From: Candidatus Cloacimonadales bacterium | Lineage (GTDB): Bacteria > Cloacimonadota > Cloacimonadia > Cloacimonadales > JAIOQZ01 | Length of the DNA stretch: 64,000 nucleotides | Assembly (NCBI GenBank): GCA_963674825.1 | Contig: OY771587.1 | Location: forward strand, 2,656,001 to 2,720,000 | Direction of reading: 5' to 3' | Shown: piece by piece, positions 40,325 through 53,396 of the stretch | Layout: each line of letters begins with the position of its first letter | How positions within the stretch are numbered: position 1 is the stretch's first letter | Translations under genes and position numbers: made by a program | Notes under the pieces: generated by a model | Databases searched by the model: none | What the model was told of the DNA's origin: nothing | What the model saw: the letters and a program-made list of their open reading frames with translations, nothing else

Positions 40325-41271
40325 TGTGCGCCTCCCGCGAGAATGTCCTGTTTTCGTATGTTATCGTGGATGGAGAGTATTCCGCCGATCAGTGCGGGGA
40401 TACCAGCCATAATCAGGAAATTGAGAATCGATATGGCGATTAGATCGGCAGGAAGGATGTTCAGTCTCTGGTAGAAGAAGATAAAAGCGCTTTCTCGGAT
40501 ACCGAAACCGCTGGTTGTTAGCGGAATCAGCGCGATTGTCTGGATAAGTGGCACAAAACAAAGGTGTTGTATAAAAGGCAGTGGGTGCCCGAATAATAAA
40601 AAAAGGAAATGGATGTTCAGGATGCCGAAAAGCTGCACGAGCAGGACAAAACCAATACCCCGAATCAAATACGTGCGGTTTGCCTGTGCCAGCAGATTCG
40701 CAAGCCTCCGGAATTTCAGCATGATTCTTTGCGGTAGATTACCACCGTTGCCTTCTTTGACACTGACCTTACGGACAATCATGAAAATAGCTATCAGGCC
40801 TGTGATAATAATGACGAGGGAAATCCGTAAAATCCAAATCCATTCGATGTCGTTTAAGAAAAGGCTTGCGAGCAGCGCCAGCGTGAATAGGCAGAAAACC
40901 CCCATGAATTTACCCAGGATTACCGACCCGATCGCGGCTTTCGTATCGATTATGCGCATCAGGATGTAGGCGCGAATGAGCGCGAAGCCGTCAGCGGAAG
41001 GCAAGAGCACACCCCAGAAGATCGAAACAAAGTTGATACGAATAAGGCGCGATAGTGGGTAGTTAACCCCAAGTGCATTCAACATGTAATGCCAGCGGAA
41101 TCCGGCGAGAACGGGTATGCATAGAATCGTGATCAGCAGGCAAGGTATCAGCCACACAAAGTTGCCGTCTGTAATCCGAATCTCGCTGAAGGTGACGCGA
41201 TATCGAATTACAAGAAAAGTGAGTAGTGCTACTGCGATCAGCAACTGAATCCATTTAAAAGCCTTTTTCAT
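40321..41271 (-). CDS. LPG-synthase-TM/UPF0104 flippase-like membrane protein
   Basis: RW motif, LPS..G, IPLTTSGFGIRE; about 8 TM segments. Confidence 0.8.
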   Translation of the reverse strand: MKKAFKWIQLLIAVALLTFLVIRYRVTFSEIRITDGNFVWLIPCLLITILCIPVLAGFRWHYMLNALGVNYPLSRLIRINFVSIFWGVLLPSADGFALIRAYILMRIIDTKAAIGSVILGKFMGVFCLFTLALLASLFLNDIEWIWILRISLVIIITGLIAIFMIVRKVSVKEGNGGNLPQRIMLKFRRLANLLAQANRTYLIRGIGFVLLVQLFGILNIHFLFLLFGHPLPFIQHLCFVPLIQTIALIPLTTSGFGIRESAFIFFYQRLNILPADLIAISILNFLIMAGIPALIGGILSIHDNIRKQDILAGGAQ

Positions 41272-42173
41272 TACCGCATGATCTCCGCCATACGCTGTAG
41301 CGAACGGGCCATCGGCTCAGCGATCGCTTCGTCTAGCACGACCTCATTCTTCTCGTTTTCAAGTGCGTCGATTGCCAGATCGAGATGATTCAGCTTCATG
41401 TCCTCGCACTGCATGCGGGGACTGAGCGGCACCAGCGATTTTTCCGGGAATCTGTGCCGAAGCTGCTCGTATAGGCCGATCTCTGTTCCGATAATGCAGC
41501 GATCATTGTGCTGCACATAATCGATCATCTGACTGGTAGAGCAGACCACATCCGCGAACTTGCATACGTCCAAGCCACATTCAGGATGCACCAGAAGAGT
41601 ATAGTCCGGATATTTCTCTTTCATTGCCTGGGCTTCTTCCAGCTCAATCTGATGATGAACGTAGCAATAGCTATCGAACATGATCAGCTTGCGGCCTGTT
41701 TTATATTCTACCCAGCGGCCGATGTTGCGGTCGGGAATGAAGATGATCTCCTTATCCTCGGGAATACGGCTAACCAGTTCCACACAGTTCGCTGACGTAC
41801 AGGTGATGGTGCTTTCCGCCTTGAGTGTCGCAGGTGAATTCACATAGCAGACGACTTCCGCGTCGGGATGCTCATCGCGTAGCTTTCTGAGGCTAAAAGG
41901 GTTCTGCATGTTCGCCAGTCGGCAATCCGCGGTGGGATGCGCCATCAGTACTTTCTTCTCCGGGTTGAGCAGCTTGGCTGTCTCTCCCATGATGCGGATG
42001 CTACACACCAACAGCATCTTCTCGTTTCGCGTGGCAGCGACTTTTGCCATTTGCAGTGAATCGCCCACGTAATCCGCTACCTCCTGAATGCTGTAGTCCA
42101 CGTAGTTATGCGCCATGACGAAGCAATCTTTCTTCTGTTTCAGCTCGATAATCCGGTTCTGTTTCGTGTCCAC
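41271..42173 (-). CDS. nadA: quinolinate synthase-like [4Fe-4S] protein
   Basis: AHNY, GDS, ETAKLLNP, YVNS, CTSAN, HPEC, IGTE; three cluster cysteines (ADC, SYC, MQC). Confidence 0.85.
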   Translation of the reverse strand: MDTKQNRIIELKQKKDCFVMAHNYVDYSIQEVADYVGDSLQMAKVAATRNEKMLLVCSIRIMGETAKLLNPEKKVLMAHPTADCRLANMQNPFSLRKLRDEHPDAEVVCYVNSPATLKAESTITCTSANCVELVSRIPEDKEIIFIPDRNIGRWVEYKTGRKLIMFDSYCYVHHQIELEEAQAMKEKYPDYTLLVHPECGLDVCKFADVVCSTSQMIDYVQHNDRCIIGTEIGLYEQLRHRFPEKSLVPLSPRMQCEDMKLNHLDLAIDALENEKNEVVLDEAIAEPMARSLQRMAEIMR

Positions 42174-42182
42174 GAGTACTCC

Positions 42183-43454
42183 TTATTCATAATGATTGCC
42201 GATCTTCGATCGAATAAACGGTGTTTTTCCACCCTTCGTTTTTTCCAATTCATCTACGATTTCAAAATCTATCTTCATGCTGCTGCCGATTCGCTTACGC
42301 AAACCCTGTTCCAGCGCGTCCTGAGATACTTCGGAATATTGATCGTCCACTACCAGGCGAAAAGTGATATGATCCAGTGCGTCCTGTACGCATTGTGATA
42401 CAATCACGCCTTTTGCCTGATCTACCGAGTGCGACATCACCGCGCCCAGGATGCGCCCGTCCGGCGTGATGATGTGGTCGCAAGCTTTTCCCTGTATCTC
42501 TTTCACCTTGCGAAATGGTCTTCCGCAAGCACAGTTTCCAACTTCCAGCGAAACCAGATCGCGCGTTTTGTAGCGAATCAATGGCATGGAATAGTTATAA
42601 TAGCTGGTTCCGATGAGCCTCCCATCCTCGACTTCCATGAAGCTGAAATCTTCGATCAGGTGCAGCGATCCGTGCTCGCACTGGGAGATCATCGCGCTGC
42701 ATTCGTGCATGGAGTGGAAATCGAACACGGTGGTCTTGTAGAGCGACTCAATCTGCTGCCTGCGGTTTTCGGAGAGCTTCTCACCATATGTGATAACACT
42801 TTTTGGAGAGGGGATCGAGAGTCCGGCATCGGATGCGAATTGCGCGATCATCATGATGTCGAACGGGAATCCGATTATGAAGCGTGGCGGTTTTTTATGC
42901 AGGTATTGGATCAGTTTCAGCGCTGATTCTTTTTGCAGCCTGTTGGAATCGAACCGAATAACGTTGTAAAGCTTATTATGCTGGAAATCGTTCTCCTTGA
43001 AATAGTAACTCTGCACCGATAACGTGCGAATACCGGGACGATAGCCTGCCCAGCCGAAGCTCCGCAGCAGTGCGGCGATCTTGTTTGCCTGAATGGCGTT
43101 GCTCAGCACAAAATGAAGCGGCGTTCCGGTGGAACCGCTGGTGGAGTCCCATGTGATGCCATAGCGTTTAGCCTGGTCGGAGAGCAAGTCCTCCTTTCGA
43201 GTGCGGACAGTTTCTTTGTCCAGGGTGGGAATCCGGTGCATATCCTCGATTCCCTTAAAGGTTGCGGTATCCAAGTCGATCTCGCTGAATAATTGCTTAT
43301 AGTACGGGACATGCGCTCCGGCGTATCGAATGAGGCGGATCAATTGCTCGTTCTGCATAGCTCGCAGTTCCTCCGCACTCCGGAATTGGGATTTCCGGTA
43401 GTATCGTAGCCGTTTCAGGACCGCGAAGGGGATTTGCAGGATCGATTTTTCCAT
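42183..43454 (-). CDS. phenylacetate-CoA ligase/CapK-like adenylating enzyme
   Basis: VPYY, TSGSTG P-loop, MPLIRY, GK..FI C-terminus. Confidence 0.85.
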   Translation of the reverse strand: MEKSILQIPFAVLKRLRYYRKSQFRSAEELRAMQNEQLIRLIRYAGAHVPYYKQLFSEIDLDTATFKGIEDMHRIPTLDKETVRTRKEDLLSDQAKRYGITWDSTSGSTGTPLHFVLSNAIQANKIAALLRSFGWAGYRPGIRTLSVQSYYFKENDFQHNKLYNVIRFDSNRLQKESALKLIQYLHKKPPRFIIGFPFDIMMIAQFASDAGLSIPSPKSVITYGEKLSENRRQQIESLYKTTVFDFHSMHECSAMISQCEHGSLHLIEDFSFMEVEDGRLIGTSYYNYSMPLIRYKTRDLVSLEVGNCACGRPFRKVKEIQGKACDHIITPDGRILGAVMSHSVDQAKGVIVSQCVQDALDHITFRLVVDDQYSEVSQDALEQGLRKRIGSSMKIDFEIVDELEKTKGGKTPFIRSKIGNHYE

Positions 43455-43455
43455 G

Positions 43456-44346
43456 TCAGGTCCGGATCATTTTCTGGATATGTTCGTAGCGTTCGATGGT
43501 GTTTCTTGCTTTCTTGAGCATGGGGGGGCCGATGAAGCGTCCGTTAATCACAGCAACGCCTTTCTCTTGTGACTTCGCCAGATCTGTCAGGCGCACCATC
43601 TCCAGTGCTTCCGTGTATTCATCTGCCGAGGGAGTGAAGTGCCGGTGCGCAGGCTCGATCTCCTTCGGGTTCAAGAGCAGCATGCCCTCGAAACCGAGCT
43701 TGCGCGCGATATCGAGGTTGTATTCCAAGTTCTCCATGTTGTGGACATCGACATGAACGGTGTCGATGGGGATGATCCCATGTGAACGTGCGGTGATGGC
43801 TATCTTCGCACGGGGATAAAACAAGCTCTGCGCTTCTGGGTCATGCACGCCATGAAGATCGGTGATGAAGTCTTCGCAGCCGAACGCGATCGCGATGATG
43901 CGCTCCGATGCGCGGCAGATAGAGTCGAGATTAACGACAGCGCCACAGGTCTCGATGATGGGGACAAGCTTGAGCTTGCCCGATTCGATCTGATTTTCGA
44001 TCTCGACAACGTGCATGAGGTGGTCGATGAAAAAGATATCCTTGGCGGTGTAGGTTTTTGGGAAGACGAACCCGGTGATAGCCAGCGGGGCGAAGGTCTT
44101 GACTTCGTCGTTGAGAAACTTGCTATCGACGTCGTTCAGCCGGATGAAGATATGTTTGCCGGTGAAGATTCCTTCTTCTATAAGCTCTTTGCAGAGTCCC
44201 CTCGCCTTGATTTTGTTTGCATCCGGTGTAACCGAATCTTCCATATCGAGGATAACTGCGTCTGTATCGGTAGTAGCGGCTTTACGAAGCAGGCGCTCGT
44301 TGTGTCCCGGTACGAATAGCATTGAACGCAATATATAATCACACAC
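43456..44346 (-). CDS. CitE/malyl-CoA lyase-like (HpcH/HpaI aldolase-citrate lyase family)
   Basis: RSMLFVPG, ILDMEDSV, IIET, FGCEDF, GFEGM; GTG start. Confidence 0.88.
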   Translation of the reverse strand: MCDYILRSMLFVPGHNERLLRKAATTDTDAVILDMEDSVTPDANKIKARGLCKELIEEGIFTGKHIFIRLNDVDSKFLNDEVKTFAPLAITGFVFPKTYTAKDIFFIDHLMHVVEIENQIESGKLKLVPIIETCGAVVNLDSICRASERIIAIAFGCEDFITDLHGVHDPEAQSLFYPRAKIAITARSHGIIPIDTVHVDVHNMENLEYNLDIARKLGFEGMLLLNPKEIEPAHRHFTPSADEYTEALEMVRLTDLAKSQEKGVAVINGRFIGPPMLKKARNTIERYEHIQKMIRT

Positions 44347-44806
44347 GCCTACCTCCTTTTGGGATCAGAACGTTTCGCACAAAGGAGAGTACTTCCGCGC
44401 CATTCTGATTGAACGCTCGCGTACGAACCCGGACGATTCCGCGGTCAGATTTACTGTGTGAGGCACGGACATCGAGTATTTCGGAGGAAGCATGAATGGT
44501 GTCACCGATAAATACTGGCGCGGTATGGCGAATCTCCTCGTAATCGAGGTTCGCGACAGCCTTTCCGCTGATATCACGCACAGTCATGCCCACGACGACA
44601 GAAAAAACGAGCGTTCCAACTACCACGCGCTCTTTGAATTGCGTTGTCGATGCGTATTCGCTATCGAGGTGAAGCGGGTGGTGATTCATGGTCAAAAGAC
44701 AAAAGAGATTGTTATCGCTTTCGGTGATTGTTTTACCAGGATAATGATCGATCATCTCACCATTTGTAAAATCTTCCAGAAACCTGCCATAATCGTTTGC
44801 TTTCAT
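44339..44806 (-). CDS. MaoC-family (hotdog) dehydratase
   Basis: GRFLEDF, KTITESDN, MNHHPLH, PVFIGDT, RGIV, NQNG. Confidence 0.88.
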   Translation of the reverse strand: MKANDYGRFLEDFTNGEMIDHYPGKTITESDNNLFCLLTMNHHPLHLDSEYASTTQFKERVVVGTLVFSVVVGMTVRDISGKAVANLDYEEIRHTAPVFIGDTIHASSEILDVRASHSKSDRGIVRVRTRAFNQNGAEVLSFVRNVLIPKGGRRV

Positions 44807-44942: not shown

Positions 44943-46898
44943 TCAGGATTGCTGATTTCTGGTGAGATAATCCCTTCCTCGCTGGGTTATAACGCGATAA
45001 TCTCCTCTACGAACCGTGACGCCCTCACGATCGAATTTATTGATTAACAGGAGACAGATTTTGCGATTTCCGTCGATCAGATCACGGAAAGTTGCGACGG
45101 TTGCGCCTTCTTCGTTCTCGAGAAGATGTTCGAGCAGAATACGTCTGCTGTCGTCAACGATACTGGCGTGGATAAAATTTGCGTCCAGGTTGTACGCTTT
45201 GTTTCTGAATACCAGCAGTTGCAGGATCTGCTTGAGCTTAAGCTCGGGGATGCCCTGGTCGAGAGCGGCTGGCACCATTTGTGACCATAATGGCGTCTGC
45301 ATCTGGCAATCGAGAAGGAATTTTTCGATGAAGTCGATCTGCTGGATATCGCGAGGTGTGAGCTTGACATCGTGCGACTTCAATGCCCAGGTGTGTCCGA
45401 TGCGCTTGAGCTCGCTCTCTGCTTCAAGCTGCTCCAGCACGAGCTGCATGACCGCTTCGGTGGTGGAATCGCGATGGACACCGAAGATACCCATCAATTC
45501 CTCGAACGATCGTCCGCCCTCATCCAGCGGATTCCGTTTGTGATAAGTATTCAGATAGCGGATGATCTTCAGCCGAAGCTTGTCGTATCGCTTACGTTCC
45601 ATCAGGTACGCGACGCTCGGTGTGGAAAGCAGCATGATATCTTCAGGCATATCGCCGGCAATGGCCTTGTCGATCTCAGTACCTGAGATGTTCAGGAGAT
45701 TGGATAGCTCTTCGCTGGTCATGGGGGAGAGGCGTTTGCGGACTTCCGCGGCGATGAGCTCGGGAATGCCGCCCTGTACAACTTCTTTGAGCTTATGGAT
45801 CAGCTCTTCCGGGCGTCTGCGGTGATGCAGTGGATGCGCGTCGATAACTTCACCGCCACCAAGCGTAAGGTCGCTGGAGCTGTTACGGATAACAAATTTA
45901 TCGCCATGCATCAGCACGGCAGGTGCTTCCAGGTGGATCTGAACGATTGCAGTGTCGCCGCCGTCGAGGCGGTCTTTGTCGATGAGGTGGACGCGTGCCT
46001 GCCCTGCGTAGGTTCCCAGCAGGAATATGACCTGCGACCAGAGGTTAAGCGGTTTGGCATGATCGTAAAGCTTAAGCCGGGCGTCGATCATGCGCGTGGA
46101 AGGCAGGATGCGGTCGCTGACCAGCATGCCGCGCTTGTATTGGTCGATATCGAGACCGACCAGATTCATGGAAGCACGGTCACCGGTTGATATTCGCTGC
46201 ACTTCGCCACCGTGGCGTTCAAGCCTTCTGGCACGTAGTTTGTCACCGGTCGGGAGCAGATAGACGTTTGCTGAACGGTTCAGTTCTCCGCTGATCACTG
46301 AACCATTGACGATGGTTCCGTGGCCGGGAATGTTGAAAATACGGTCGATATACATACGGAAAATTTCACCTGATTCCCGTTCCGGGATATCCTGTGATAT
46401 TGCTTCCAGATGCTCGATCAATTCTGGGATGCCCTCGCCGGTTTTCGCGGAGACCTTCACGATAGGTGCGTTTTCGAAGGCGGTATCTTCCACCAACTCA
46501 CGGATATCGATTTCAGCGAACTCGAGCAATTCCTGATCGACCAGGTCTATCTTGGTAAGAACGATGATACCCTTTTCGATGCCGAGGGTGCGGATGATCT
46601 GAAGATGTTCGCGTGTTTGTGGCATCACGCCGCTGTCTGCCGCGATGACCAGCAATACAAAATCGATTCCGCTTGCGCCGGAGACCATCGTATTGACGAA
46701 GTCCGCGTGGCCCGGGACATCGACGATGCCGAGGCTGTTTCCGCTGGGGAGATCGAGGTGACTGAATCCCAGATGGATGGTGATTCCGCGCAATTGCTCT
46801 TCTTTATGGGTGTCGCAGTTGAAGCCGGTGAGCTGCTCGATGAGTGTGGTTTTTCCGTGGTCGATATGACCGGCTGTCCCCATGATCAGGTGTTTCAT
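44943..46898 (-). CDS. selB: selenocysteine-specific elongation factor
   Basis: GTAGHIDHGKT, RGITI, DVPGH, TKID, DRIF, TLGGGEV; C-terminal winged-helix region. Confidence 0.95.
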   Translation of the reverse strand: MKHLIMGTAGHIDHGKTTLIEQLTGFNCDTHKEEQLRGITIHLGFSHLDLPSGNSLGIVDVPGHADFVNTMVSGASGIDFVLLVIAADSGVMPQTREHLQIIRTLGIEKGIIVLTKIDLVDQELLEFAEIDIRELVEDTAFENAPIVKVSAKTGEGIPELIEHLEAISQDIPERESGEIFRMYIDRIFNIPGHGTIVNGSVISGELNRSANVYLLPTGDKLRARRLERHGGEVQRISTGDRASMNLVGLDIDQYKRGMLVSDRILPSTRMIDARLKLYDHAKPLNLWSQVIFLLGTYAGQARVHLIDKDRLDGGDTAIVQIHLEAPAVLMHGDKFVIRNSSSDLTLGGGEVIDAHPLHHRRRPEELIHKLKEVVQGGIPELIAAEVRKRLSPMTSEELSNLLNISGTEIDKAIAGDMPEDIMLLSTPSVAYLMERKRYDKLRLKIIRYLNTYHKRNPLDEGGRSFEELMGIFGVHRDSTTEAVMQLVLEQLEAESELKRIGHTWALKSHDVKLTPRDIQQIDFIEKFLLDCQMQTPLWSQMVPAALDQGIPELKLKQILQLLVFRNKAYNLDANFIHASIVDDSRRILLEHLLENEEGATVATFRDLIDGNRKICLLLINKFDREGVTVRRGDYRVITQRGRDYLTRNQQS

Positions 46899-48326: not shown

Positions 48327-48421
48327 TGGCTGAGAGGGCAGGAATCGAACCTGCCACGGACGGTATTATCCGCCCGATACTGGCTTTGCAGACCAGCCGG
48401 ACCACCAGATCCATCCTCCCG
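48327..48421 (-). tRNA. selC: tRNA-Sec-type tRNA (selC) with a GCA anticodon
   Basis: CGGGAGG A TGGATC TGGT GGTCCG GCTGGT CTGCAAA GCCAGT AT CGGGCGG ATAATA CCGTCCG TG GCAGG TTCGATT CCTGC CCTCTCA G CCA: 6-bp D stem with 4-nt loop, long variable arm, G73, encoded CCA; 35 nt upstream of selA. Confidence 0.9.
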
Positions 48422-48502
48422 CACGTGGTTTCCTTTTTGCGCTACGGCTTTTCATCCGTCAACGAAAAACTTGCCGTTGTCAAACTTCTTCCATAGCGTT
48501 CA

Positions 48503-49805: not shown

Positions 49806-52800
49806 ATGATAAAACGAATGATCCCTCTTTTGTGGCTTATGAGCCTCGCAGTTGCGATCAGCGCCTTTACACCTGTAATCGACGGCACCAAAGATGCCGC
49901 CTGGGGTGCTACACCTACTGAAGCAACTTTCACTACGATGCAGCCTACGGAATTCAATCTGGAGGATGGCTGCTACGTAACGGACGATGACAACTATATT
50001 TATTTCGGTATCCCGACTGACAACGATCCCTGGGGCGATGGAAACGCCATCCATCTGCATCTGTCGATCGACCTTCGCAACACCGCTGCCGGCGGTACGG
50101 GCGATGCATGGGGAAGCCAGGTACAATATGGCCAACCCTATCTGCCCGATTACGACATCATTATGCAGTGGAACACGAACGATCAGAACGTTGGCTACAC
50201 TGGATTCATGACCTGGAACGGCACCGGCTGGGATCAGGTTCAGCTCGATCCGGCGAACATCGCGGGTGGCGGTGGTCAGTTCACCGAAATCGCAGTTCCC
50301 AGAAGCATGTTCGATAACGTCGAACTGGACGAAAACCTCAATATTTCTCTCTGGCAGCGTCCGGCTTGGAACAAGAACAATGCCAACGCGTGCTGCCCGG
50401 CAGACGCCGAGTTCCCATCCGATTGGGGTGATGGTGCAGGTGGAACCCAGACAACCCAGTTTGCCTATACCGTATCAACTCAGCTTGCCGATACAACTGC
50501 TCCGCGCATGTCCTCGGCAGTGCAGGACGGCCCCTCCACAGTCCGCGTAACCTTCAACGAACCGATGGGTAGCGGCGCTCAAGTGGCTGGAAACTACACA
50601 ATCGATAACAGCGCTTCAATCGATGCAGTATCGATGATTTCTGCGAGTGTGTATGATCTCACCGTCAGTGGCCTTGTTGCCGGTACGGAATACGAACTGA
50701 CAGCGACATCCGCCATTATGGACGTGTCGAACAATCCGATCGACCCTTCCTACAACAGCGATACGTTCACCGCCAGCGCTTTTGCTGATGTGACTTTTAC
50801 AATCAACGACAACAGCCATATCTATGAGAATATCAAAGTCAAGGGTAACTTCGACGAATGGGCTCTTCATCAGGCTTACGACGATGGTACCCATGGCGAC
50901 CCGACTGCCGGCGACTACTCCTGGACCTGCGTGGTAGAGAATGTACCCGAAGGTAGCTGGGAATGGGGCGCAATCGAAGACGATGGCTCACAGTATGGTA
51001 TCTGGCTCATCGATGGTCCGAACCTTCAATTTACCGTGGATAACACAGGTGCTGTGACCGGCGATGTATCGTACGATATCGCTGGTGGAATCGCACAGGA
51101 TGTCGATGTGACCTTCCGTGTCAATATCGGCTCGCTCGACGTAACCGGTGTTTCCGTGCAGGGTAGCGTTCTGCCGCTCAACTGGACGCCCGGCAGCAAC
51201 CTTATGGCCGACCCCGAAAACGATAAAATCTATGAAGCGACGATCACCTTCCCCGCAGGAAGCAACTTCGACGTTGACTACAAATTCACCTACGAATCGT
51301 CTGTCCGTGATTGGAACTGGGAAGATGTCGATAACCGCACATTCACCATCGATGATACGCAGATCTCGATGGTCCTTGATGTCAATTACTGGAACAACAA
51401 CGAAGTAAGCGAGCTGACCGCTGTGTCTTTCATGGACAGCACTACTTCGGATTACACCAACTTCCAGAGCGGCGACGTCCTGGGAGCAGGCAGCAACATC
51501 CAGATCGAAGTTGAAGCCGACGCGATCGACGTTAACAACAACTCAGGCTTCAGCCTGATGCTGCATTACCGCGTGAACCTTGGCCTCGAGCAGTCCAAGG
51601 CCTTCACCTGGGAAAGCAATGGTGAAACAGCTTCCTACTGGCGTGTCGCGCTCAACTACGGCGCTGAAATCAGTGACGATGACAATGTTCTGTTCCGCAT
51701 TGAAGGTACAGACTACAATGGCCCAACCGTCGAAGACGATAATGGTGGCAGCAATTACGAAGTAAGCCTCGGCTCATCTGGAACCCAGCAGGATGTAGAT
51801 GTGACCTTCACATTCAACCTGGGCACTTCCGACGCGATCGAAGTTGGCCTGGTTGGAACTGTCGCTCCACTCAGCCCGTTAGGATCGGACAACCTGATGG
51901 TTGACGACAACGGCGATAAAATCTATACAAAGACTGTCACTTTCCCGGCAGGATCGCCCTACGCAGTGTCTTATAACTATGCCCGTAACCTGCCGGAAAC
52001 ACGCTCCTGGCAGATCGAACCAAGTATCAGCAGAAGTTTCAATCTCGACGACGTGACCGGAACCATGGATCTCGGTGTCGAGTATTGGGAAGGTGTGGCG
52101 GTTTCCGAACTGACCGATGTATTCTTCCTGGACAACGAGACTTCGGTTTATTCAAACTTCGCCAGTGGTGGATCGGTTGATACCGGTAGCGATATCCAAA
52201 TCGAAGCGCAGGTCGAAGGTGTTGACGCCAATGCAAATTCCGATTTCCAGGTAACATTGTATTACCATGTGAATTCAGGAGAGCTTCAATCAAAAACATT
52301 TGGATGGGCAAGCAACTACGAAGGAAATTCCTGGTGGCATGTGATGCTCGAGAACGGTGTCGAAGTAAATGATGGCGACGATGTGAGTTTCTATATCGAA
52401 GCTACTGATTACAACGGTCCGGTCATCACCGATGACAACGACGGTAGCTCTTACACTGTCAGCGTACTCGGTGCCACGACATCGCAAGATGTCACCGTGA
52501 CATTCTCTATCAACGTTGGTGCGCTCAATGCCGACAGCATTTCGGTTCAGGGCAGCGTTGCTCCGCTTAATTGGATAGCCGGTTCAACACCGATGACCGA
52601 TGAAGATGGCGACCGCACTTACACTGTTGATGTCCTCTTCCCGGCAGGCTCACCTTTCACGGTTGAATACAAGTTCACCCGCGAAACGCCTGCAACCCGT
52701 GAATGGGCCTGGGAATACATAGGTAACCGCAGCTTCCAGATTCAGGATGCCGAGTCTACACAGGTTCTGGATCTCGACTACTGGAATCTCAACGAAGTCC

Positions 52801-53396
52801 ACGAAATGACAAGTGCCGCTTTTGCTGACAGCAGTGCATCCGATTACACCAACTTTGCCAGTGGCGACGTTCTTCCCATGGGCAGCGATGTCCTGATCGA
52901 AGCCTATACCGGTGGAATCGATACCAACTACAATTCTGGCTACGAAGTGACACTTCACTACATCATCAATGGCGGAACCGAGCAAACGACAGTGCTGAAC
53001 TGGCAGGGTAGCGATGCGGAATATTCCTGGTGGCGAATCGGCCTCGTGAATGGCGACACCGTCAGTGATTACGATCAGGTTGAATTCTGGATCACAGCAA
53101 CCGACTACAACGGCCCCGTCTTCACCGATGATAATGGTGGCGAGAACTACACCGTCAGCGTTGGTCAGGCAGCACCTCCGGCAGCACCGCAGGATGTCAT
53201 GATCACCGTCGTCGGAACCGATGTCCAGATATCCTGGGCAGCCGTAACCGGCGCGACGAGCTATCGTCTGCAGTCTTGCGATGCACCGGATGGAACCTTC
53301 ACGAACGTAACGGTTACTACCAATACAAGCGTGACCATCACCAATGGCGCGGGTTCTGCCGATATGAAGTTCTATCGCGTTAAGGCAATGAATTAA
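49806..53396 (+). CDS. secreted multidomain carbohydrate-binding protein (DOMON/CBM9-like, Ig-like, three CBM20-like repeats, Fn3-like C-terminus)
   Basis: Signal peptide; repeated VTF.VN...VQGSV.PLNW..G and YKF...WE...NR.F motifs; C-terminal ISWAAVTGATSY...FYRVKA. Confidence 0.7.
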   Translation: MIKRMIPLLWLMSLAVAISAFTPVIDGTKDAAWGATPTEATFTTMQPTEFNLEDGCYVTDDDNYIYFGIPTDNDPWGDGNAIHLHLSIDLRNTAAGGTGDAWGSQVQYGQPYLPDYDIIMQWNTNDQNVGYTGFMTWNGTGWDQVQLDPANIAGGGGQFTEIAVPRSMFDNVELDENLNISLWQRPAWNKNNANACCPADAEFPSDWGDGAGGTQTTQFAYTVSTQLADTTAPRMSSAVQDGPSTVRVTFNEPMGSGAQVAGNYTIDNSASIDAVSMISASVYDLTVSGLVAGTEYELTATSAIMDVSNNPIDPSYNSDTFTASAFADVTFTINDNSHIYENIKVKGNFDEWALHQAYDDGTHGDPTAGDYSWTCVVENVPEGSWEWGAIEDDGSQYGIWLIDGPNLQFTVDNTGAVTGDVSYDIAGGIAQDVDVTFRVNIGSLDVTGVSVQGSVLPLNWTPGSNLMADPENDKIYEATITFPAGSNFDVDYKFTYESSVRDWNWEDVDNRTFTIDDTQISMVLDVNYWNNNEVSELTAVSFMDSTTSDYTNFQSGDVLGAGSNIQIEVEADAIDVNNNSGFSLMLHYRVNLGLEQSKAFTWESNGETASYWRVALNYGAEISDDDNVLFRIEGTDYNGPTVEDDNGGSNYEVSLGSSGTQQDVDVTFTFNLGTSDAIEVGLVGTVAPLSPLGSDNLMVDDNGDKIYTKTVTFPAGSPYAVSYNYARNLPETRSWQIEPSISRSFNLDDVTGTMDLGVEYWEGVAVSELTDVFFLDNETSVYSNFASGGSVDTGSDIQIEAQVEGVDANANSDFQVTLYYHVNSGELQSKTFGWASNYEGNSWWHVMLENGVEVNDGDDVSFYIEATDYNGPVITDDNDGSSYTVSVLGATTSQDVTVTFSINVGALNADSISVQGSVAPLNWIAGSTPMTDEDGDRTYTVDVLFPAGSPFTVEYKFTRETPATREWAWEYIGNRSFQIQDAESTQVLDLDYWNLNEVHEMTSAAFADSSASDYTNFASGDVLPMGSDVLIEAYTGGIDTNYNSGYEVTLHYIINGGTEQTTVLNWQGSDAEYSWWRIGLVNGDTVSDYDQVEFWITATDYNGPVFTDDNGGENYTVSVGQAAPPAAPQDVMITVVGTDVQISWAAVTGATSYRLQSCDAPDGTFTNVTVTTNTSVTITNGAGSADMKFYRVKAMN

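Follow-up and report, generated by a model that had tools for sequence, protein, structure and literature searches.

The window analysed here, a stretch of 64,000 nucleotides from the complete 3.89 Mb genome of a Candidatus Cloacimonadales bacterium (G000; its contig coordinates are given as C1), carries upstream of selA and selB a tRNA gene with a GCA anticodon. This gene is most likely a genuine selenocysteine (Sec) tRNA of the Cloacimonadota type, the anticodon of which has changed from UCA to GCA, and which inserts Sec at those UGC or UGU (UGY) cysteine codons that are marked with a SECIS (selenocysteine insertion sequence). On the basis of comparative sequence analysis, we put the probability of this reading at about 0.78. 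Insertion of Sec at SECIS-flanked UGC/UGU codons had been suggested in the initial annotation of the window, and is favoured by two patterns in related genomes: in three protein families the Sec-site codon varies with the type of tRNA, and hairpins downstream of the site are kept.

The Rfam model of tRNA-Sec (RF01852) matches window positions 48330-48424 on the minus strand with 54.8 bits, above its gathering score of 47, while ARAGORN reports it as tRNA-Cys(gca). CU-GCA-AA is the sequence of the anticodon loop. The CCA end of the tRNA lies 35 nt upstream of the start of a full-length selA, and selB follows directly, so that selA is situated between the GCA tRNA and selB; this arrangement, noted at the outset, is borne out by the sequence and by family models TIGR00474 and TIGR00475. 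A promoter scan upstream of the GCA tRNA yielded nothing notable. The GCA anticodon base is genuine: an assembly error at position 48389, raised as a concern in the initial annotation, is excluded because contigs X1 to X4 from four public runs show no alternative letter anywhere inside the tRNA, and because the same GCA gene is present in other genomes of the phylum (26 of 232). Contigs X1 and X2 come from one sample (possibly the sample of origin). X3 derives from a further sample taken in that study, and X4 from a relative sampled in another study.

The fold of the tRNA was assessed with a hand-written cloverleaf on an alignment (A3) of 32 distinct Cloacimonadales tRNAs of the same type, 18 with GCA and 14 with TCA, each exactly 95 nt long. 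Overall, pairing holds in 95.1% of cells, both sides vary at 10 pairs, and the covariation score was reached by none of 500 shuffles; sliding the 3′ partners as a control brought pairing down to 36-48%. The D stem of 6 bp with its 4-nt UGGU loop (94.3% paired) and the anticodon stem of 6 bp (98.4%) both show changes on both sides of pairs. The variable arm has a 7-bp stem (97.3% paired), the T stem 5 bp and no bulge (100%), acceptor pairs 2-7 are always paired, and the acceptor stem is joined to the D stem by a single nucleotide. All 32 sequences have G as the discriminator, and in 31 of them CCA comes next. Besides the RF01852 score, the gene has those hallmarks of bacterial tRNA-Sec that had been recognised from the window alone: D and anticodon stems of 6 bp, a long variable arm and a G73 discriminator. 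The fold departs from the expected picture in one respect: the usual bacterial tRNA-Sec has an 8/5 acceptor/T arm of 13 bp, and the arm found here is 7/5, i.e. 12 bp, with one linker nucleotide. The anticodon, likewise, is GCA and not the UCA of bacterial tRNA-Sec. In column 33 of the alignment, 18 sequences have G and 14 have T, and no other position of the anticodon triplet distinguishes GCA from UCA forms. The window gene also differs from canonical tRNA-Cys, which has about 74 nt, a short variable loop and U73, and the ordinary tRNA-Cys that the initial annotation had called for was indeed located as a separate gene of 74 nt with U73 (Table 1). Under the identity rules of cysteinyl-tRNA synthetase (CysRS) and seryl-tRNA synthetase (SerRS), as given in parts of PMC5389517 and PMC8762117, G73 speaks against charging by CysRS and for charging by SerRS.

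The search covered 41 genomes of the order and gave a tRNA-Sec match in 32, with GCA as the only anticodon in 18, UCA only in 10, and both in 4 (G000, G002, G003 and G015). In three families, this distribution is mirrored by the Sec-site codon. For SelD, 36 matches were obtained. An in-frame TGA occurs in 11 of these, all from genomes with a UCA tRNA, and the 25 stop-free matches come from GCA-only genomes, from G000, G002 and G003, or from G033, which gave no tRNA match; at the Sec site itself, inspected in 31 SelD sequences, TGC or TGT was found in 22 and TGA in 9. For FdhA, TGA lies within CARL-U-HS in the two UCA-only genomes, and the site is TGC or TGT in 14 GCA-only genomes and in G015. 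The third family, of secreted proteins with a W-[U/C]-x-x-C motif, provided 66 matches in the 41 genomes searched. One TGA is present in 18 of them (17 from UCA-only genomes and one from G015), and no stop in any match from GCA-only genomes or from G000-G003. The TGA corresponds to the first Cys of W-C-x-x-C in 4/4 TGA sequences inspected, and TGC or TGT takes this position in 9/9 inspected sequences from GCA-bearing genomes. Genome G015 (L170, L211, L252), with both tRNAs and two SelBs, has TGA in SelD and in its W-U-x-x-C protein and TGC in FdhA, and from these sequences it appears to use both codons for Sec sites.

In all three families, the codon is followed at a distance of 9 to 12 nt by a 7-bp hairpin, in TGA and TGY genes alike. 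A Sec site that has the corresponding sense codon and a SECIS hairpin after it is found in SelD, FdhA and the secreted family. Pairing extends to 93.3% of cells in FdhA, 92.9% in SelD and 92.3% in the secreted family, with changes on both sides at 4/7, 2/7 and 3/7 pairs, respectively. The covariation score was reached by 0/500 shuffles in each case, in a control that ignores relatedness; the slide control, which takes relatedness into account, reduced pairing to 20-60% in all three families. In FdhA, the changes on both sides fall mostly at synonymous third positions, and the outer pair (AU in 6 sequences, GC in 6, UA in 2) varies at such positions exclusively. Pair 18:26 of the SelD hairpin is AU in 6, GC in 4 and UA in 2. 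The apical loop GGUCU of fdhA presumably resembles the SECIS of E. coli fdhF. A genome-wide count in G000 showed no enrichment of TGY followed by a hairpin with GUG loop over control codons.

The secreted family was first met through a hairpin scan of G000. Its members are about 750 aa long and combine a signal peptide with an EVFTQTW-[U/C]-G-Y-C-P segment near the N terminus, PKD and beta-helix regions, and a type IX secretion tail; the N-terminal domain gave no match to a Pfam family. Since the first Cys is TGA in UCA-type Cloacimonadales, this looks like a selenoprotein family, possibly a new one.

We infer charging, conversion to Sec and delivery, together with the resulting Sec/Cys ratio, as follows. 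The GCA tRNA would be charged with serine by SerRS, by virtue of its long variable arm and G73, and the adjacent SelA would turn Ser into Sec with selenophosphate provided by SelD. The neighbouring SelB (SelB1) would then bind both the Sec-tRNA and the SECIS hairpin just downstream of particular UGC or UGU codons, and deliver Sec there. Ordinary Cys-tRNA on EF-Tu would compete at the same codon. As the competitor at a sense codon is Cys-tRNA and not a release factor, failed Sec insertion would yield a full-length protein with Cys as the fallback, without truncation. Candidate Sec sites in G000 are those of selD (TGT) and of two secreted W-C-x-x-C proteins (TGC). This agrees in part with the selenoprotein homologues expected by the initial annotation: selD with TGT and a hairpin is present, and FdhA, GrdA and GrdB were searched for in G000 and none was found, which for GrdA and GrdB carries little weight as they were also unmatched in control genomes.

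The Sec machinery of G000 comprises one selA (the copy in the window), two selB and two selD genes, none with stops. One of the selD genes (C1:154782-155696, L018) occupies the C-terminal end of an open frame that extends over about 750 aa and also reads as protein upstream of the SelD portion; the long frame looks like a gene fusion, and a fused-looking long form of selD occurs in about 10 relatives as well. There is one cysS, and no cysS*. A second selC with UCA anticodon, for which the initial annotation had advised a search, is present with its own selB, so that the GCA tRNA is not the sole tRNA-Sec; the UGA-encoded selenoproteins that were part of the same expectation were not found in G000. 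SelB1 and SelB2 share 35% identity, and the genes around the selC(UCA)-selB2 pair give no clue to its role. UGA still acts as a stop in G000, as had been supposed from the window, because release factor 2 (RF2) is present (509 bits) and TGA terminates 613 of 1814 open reading frames (ORFs) of at least 300 aa.

UGA-encoded targets in G000 were sought in several ways. Self-tblastn for Sec/Cys paralogue pairs, hexamer models and six-frame codon models of coding sequence flanking TGA on either side, and scans for TGA followed by a hairpin all gave nothing convincing. Sixteen read-through candidates compared with Pfam turned out to be adjacent genes or antisense frames. The hunts thus provide a weak negative for a UGA target of tRNA-Sec(UCA) and SelB2.

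Several observations weigh against Sec insertion by the GCA tRNA. The presence of a UCA tRNA-Sec with its own SelB in G000 means that Sec use there does not depend on the GCA tRNA. One W-C-x-x-C paralogue of the UCA-only genome G026 lacks TGA, the sole such match. Conserved peptide sequence could keep part of each hairpin, and the hairpin after the fused selD is weak and unclear. FdhA of the GCA-only genome G022 (L222) has TGC and no hairpin, within the divergent peptide TITGLSLTL. Finally, a 7/5 acceptor/T arm is the geometry of ordinary elongator tRNAs, and offers no obvious means of excluding EF-Tu from Ser-tRNA. With regard to this last point, pair 1:72 is unpaired in 29/32 sequences of the alignment (C.A, A.G or A.A in columns 1 and 91, corresponding to window positions 48421 and 48331). 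In bacterial initiator tRNA, a C1.A72 mismatch keeps EF-Tu off, and we take the unpaired 1:72 of the window tRNA family to recall it; that this feature keeps EF-Tu off Ser-tRNA is only a guess by analogy. As for G022, its FdhA may be a true Cys-type enzyme.

The GCA tRNA could instead be a Cys-charged mimic of tRNA-Sec, of the kind known as selC* or tRNAReC, with CysRS attaching the amino acid and SelB placing Cys at SECIS-marked codons. Such tRNAs are described in the relevant passages of PMC5389517, PMC7609411 and PMC13582414 with GCA or UCA anticodon, beside a second selB and with a normal selC retained; G000 likewise has two selB genes and, with its selC(UCA), a normal selC. We nevertheless regard this as very improbable. 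Where selC*/tRNAReC has U73, the discriminator here is invariably G; the 8/4 stem with an A51a bulge is replaced by a 7/5 arm without bulge; cysS is single in G000, with no cysS*; and selA sits between the GCA tRNA and selB. Moreover, the GCA form is the sole tRNA-Sec-type gene in 18 of the 32 tRNA-bearing relatives, where it occurs with selA and selD and has no canonical selC as a companion. Delivery of Cys to a Cys codon would, besides, gain nothing.

It is about equally improbable that the GCA tRNA reads UGA through a G34-A mismatch under the control of SelB and SECIS, with the TGY sites being plain Cys codons. Recoding of UGA with a downstream SECIS is reported for a tRNAReC with GCA anticodon (PMC13582414, citing Vargas-Rodriguez 2018, as far as the passage concerned goes). 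Against this, TGA is found at the Sec site in none of the three families in GCA-only genomes, hairpins after TGY codons are kept by compensatory changes, and the hunts in G000 retrieved no UGA selenoprotein gene. Least probable of all is a relic locus, in which the Sec sites are now ordinary Cys codons and tRNA, selA and selB persist without Sec insertion, or in regulation or the like: SelD and FdhA commonly occur in nature with Cys, but tRNA, selA, selB and selD are all intact, 17 genera of the phylum have the GCA tRNA (selA, selB and selD being checked among the 41 relatives), compensatory changes are kept in the tRNA cloverleaf, and hairpins covary at synonymous sites within TGY lineages.

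Sec insertion at UGC/UGU by the GCA tRNA is the reading retained here, and raises the question of how it relates to the UCA tRNA in those genomes that have both. It is conceivable, at odds clearly below even, that G000, G002, G003 and G015 operate two parallel Sec channels served by one SelA, with the UCA tRNA and SelB2 acting at UGA and the GCA tRNA and SelB1 at UGC/UGU. Differences in the SECIS loop may keep the two channels apart. In G015, loops are of GGG type at the two UGA sites and GGUCU at the UGC site, and the third loop position in SelD and the secreted family is U in UGY genomes and mostly G in UGA genomes. This U-versus-G switch fails in FdhA, with GGUCU in both groups, and does not track the SelB tree, and is a hint only. 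If true, the two channels would represent a natural orthogonal pair for Sec decoding, and a codon reassignment caught in progress.

In every genome examined, there are as many SelB genes as tRNA-Sec genes. G001, of the same genus as G000, has the GCA tRNA alone and one SelB; G002 and G003 are also congeners of G000. In a phylum-wide pattern scan, 26 of 232 genomes, representing 17 of 66 genera, matched with the GCA form; with the UCA form, 55 of the 158 genomes of at least 90% completeness matched, a second order included. Among the latter 158 genomes, GCA and UCA occur together only in G000, G002, G003 and G015. Judging from this phylum distribution of both forms, UCA looks ancestral and GCA derived. 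In a quick maximum-likelihood tree of 32 SelBs, from which two truncated sequences were left out, the window SelB groups with SelBs of G001, G002 and G003 (support 100). This group is nested in a clade of 22 SelBs (support 100) that includes every one of the 13 SelBs contributed to the tree by GCA-only genomes, and also 4 SelBs of the UCA-only family f12. The second SelBs of G000, G002 and G003 sit on a long branch (1.15) beside a UCA-only genome. The tree thus suggests that the window locus is the resident system of this lineage, and the UCA/SelB2 pair an extra one. In G004, G007 and G017, fdhA directly adjoins the GCA tRNA.

Sec recoding of Cys codons is a rare variant of the genetic code that has already been reported, and the tRNA scaffold of the phylum has already been named in print. 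The precedent invoked by the initial annotation exists: sense-codon variants of tRNA-Sec, including an Aeromonas salmonicida tRNA-Sec(GCA) acting at UGC/UGU with SECIS, were published in 2016 (Mukai 2016, Angew Chem, as cited in PMC11415595, PMC8124441 and PMC5330540). As these citing papers describe it, the Aeromonas salmonicida-type system shares with the present one a tRNA-Sec with Cys anticodon and UGC/UGU with SECIS at the Sec site. The system described here differs in belonging to another phylum, in its 7/5 cloverleaf, in its occurrence in 17 genera instead of a few strains, in its three target families (one of them secreted), and in the UCA tRNA-Sec and second SelB that stand alongside it in 4 genomes. 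A “Cloacimonetes type” of tRNA-Sec with a 12-bp (7+5) acceptor/T arm, one missing linker nucleotide and G73 is mentioned in the Secmarker paper (PMC5330540, citing Mukai 2016). It is exactly the fold counted here, and the passage of PMC5330540 concerned is silent on the anticodon. A literature search combining Cloacimon* with selenocysteine or tRNASec returned only PMC5330540, and did not extend to Mukai 2016 itself; the dual UCA/GCA machinery within one genome may be new.

The selC*/tRNAReC and selB* genes reported in Desulfobacterales, Syntrophobacterales and Desulfotomaculum (PMC5389517, PMC7609411) resemble the present system, as far as the passages describe them, in the tRNA-Sec-like structure with GCA or UCA anticodon, the duplicated selB and the normal selC in the genome. 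They differ from it in being Cys-charged, with U73 (which the operational tRNAReC rule quoted in PMC13582414 demands), an 8/4 stem with a bulge, and Cys inserted at UGA, where G73, an adjacent selA and UGY targets are found here. The components are otherwise the same as in the selC-selA-selB system of E. coli type, from which the window system is set apart by its GCA anticodon, its 7/5 fold and a competitor that is Cys-tRNA instead of RF2.

Annotation pipelines call the gene tRNA-Cys and its targets Cys proteins. As a consequence, the selenoproteome of the genomes with the GCA form, a sizeable share of Cloacimonadota, would be invisible to UGA-based searches. The co-existence of UCA-only, GCA-only and dual genomes, with codon changes in three families, constitutes an unusually complete series for stop-to-sense recoding. 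Should the tRNA/SelB pairs prove orthogonal, they would supply ready-made parts for placing Sec at sense codons without truncation.

Table 1. Location of the tRNA genes, Sec machinery and candidate Sec-site genes. Plain numbers are window positions; C1 denotes contig coordinates of G000.
Feature	Position	Strand	Evidence or detail
tRNA-Sec-type gene with GCA anticodon, Cloacimonetes-type 7/5 cloverleaf, G73, encoded CCA, 95 nt	48327..48421	-	RF01852, ARAGORN, homologue pair counts
Anticodon GCA (tgc on plus strand), complementary to Cys codons UGC/UGU	48387..48389	-	sequence; alignment A3 column 33
selA, L-seryl-tRNA(Sec) selenium transferase, sole copy in genome	46906..48291	-	TIGR00474, 530.4 bits (cut-off 267.9)
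selB (SelB1), Sec-specific elongation factor paired with GCA tRNA	44943..46898	-	TIGR00475, 335 bits (cut-off 242)
Second tRNA-Sec, UCA anticodon	C1:1971717-1971811		58.8 bits (tRNA-Sec model)
Second selB (SelB2), head to head with tRNA-Sec(UCA)	C1:1971884-1973662		309.6 bits
tRNA-Cys, ordinary	C1:3014650-3014723		
selD, candidate Sec site	C1:133401-134324		TGT, then UUAGGAC-CGUGU-GUCUUAA
Secreted W-C-x-x-C protein, candidate Sec site	C1:79061-81313 (L246:162-2414)	-	TGC, then GCAGCUC-GGUCU-GGGCUGC
Paralogue of secreted protein, candidate Sec site	about C1:83204-83578 (about 83.2-83.6 kb)		TGC, 6/7 pairs, GGUCU loop

Directly downstream of selB, at window positions 41271-44806 on the minus strand, lie genes for a RipB/Ich-like enoyl-CoA hydratase, a CitE-like lyase and an acyl-CoA ligase-like protein. 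All three score under their family cut-offs, and may form an operon for an acyl-CoA pathway. On the other side of the locus, an ORF of 1196 aa (49806-53396, plus strand) has a weak Ig-like domain as its only family match. Outside the phylum, a metagenome-assembled genome of Coriobacteriia contains a 97-nt gene called “tRNA-Pyl” by ARAGORN (L083:6287-6383), with a CUA anticodon and about 1.9 kb downstream of selA; possibly this gene is a tRNA-Sec(CUA) that serves Sec encoded by UAG.
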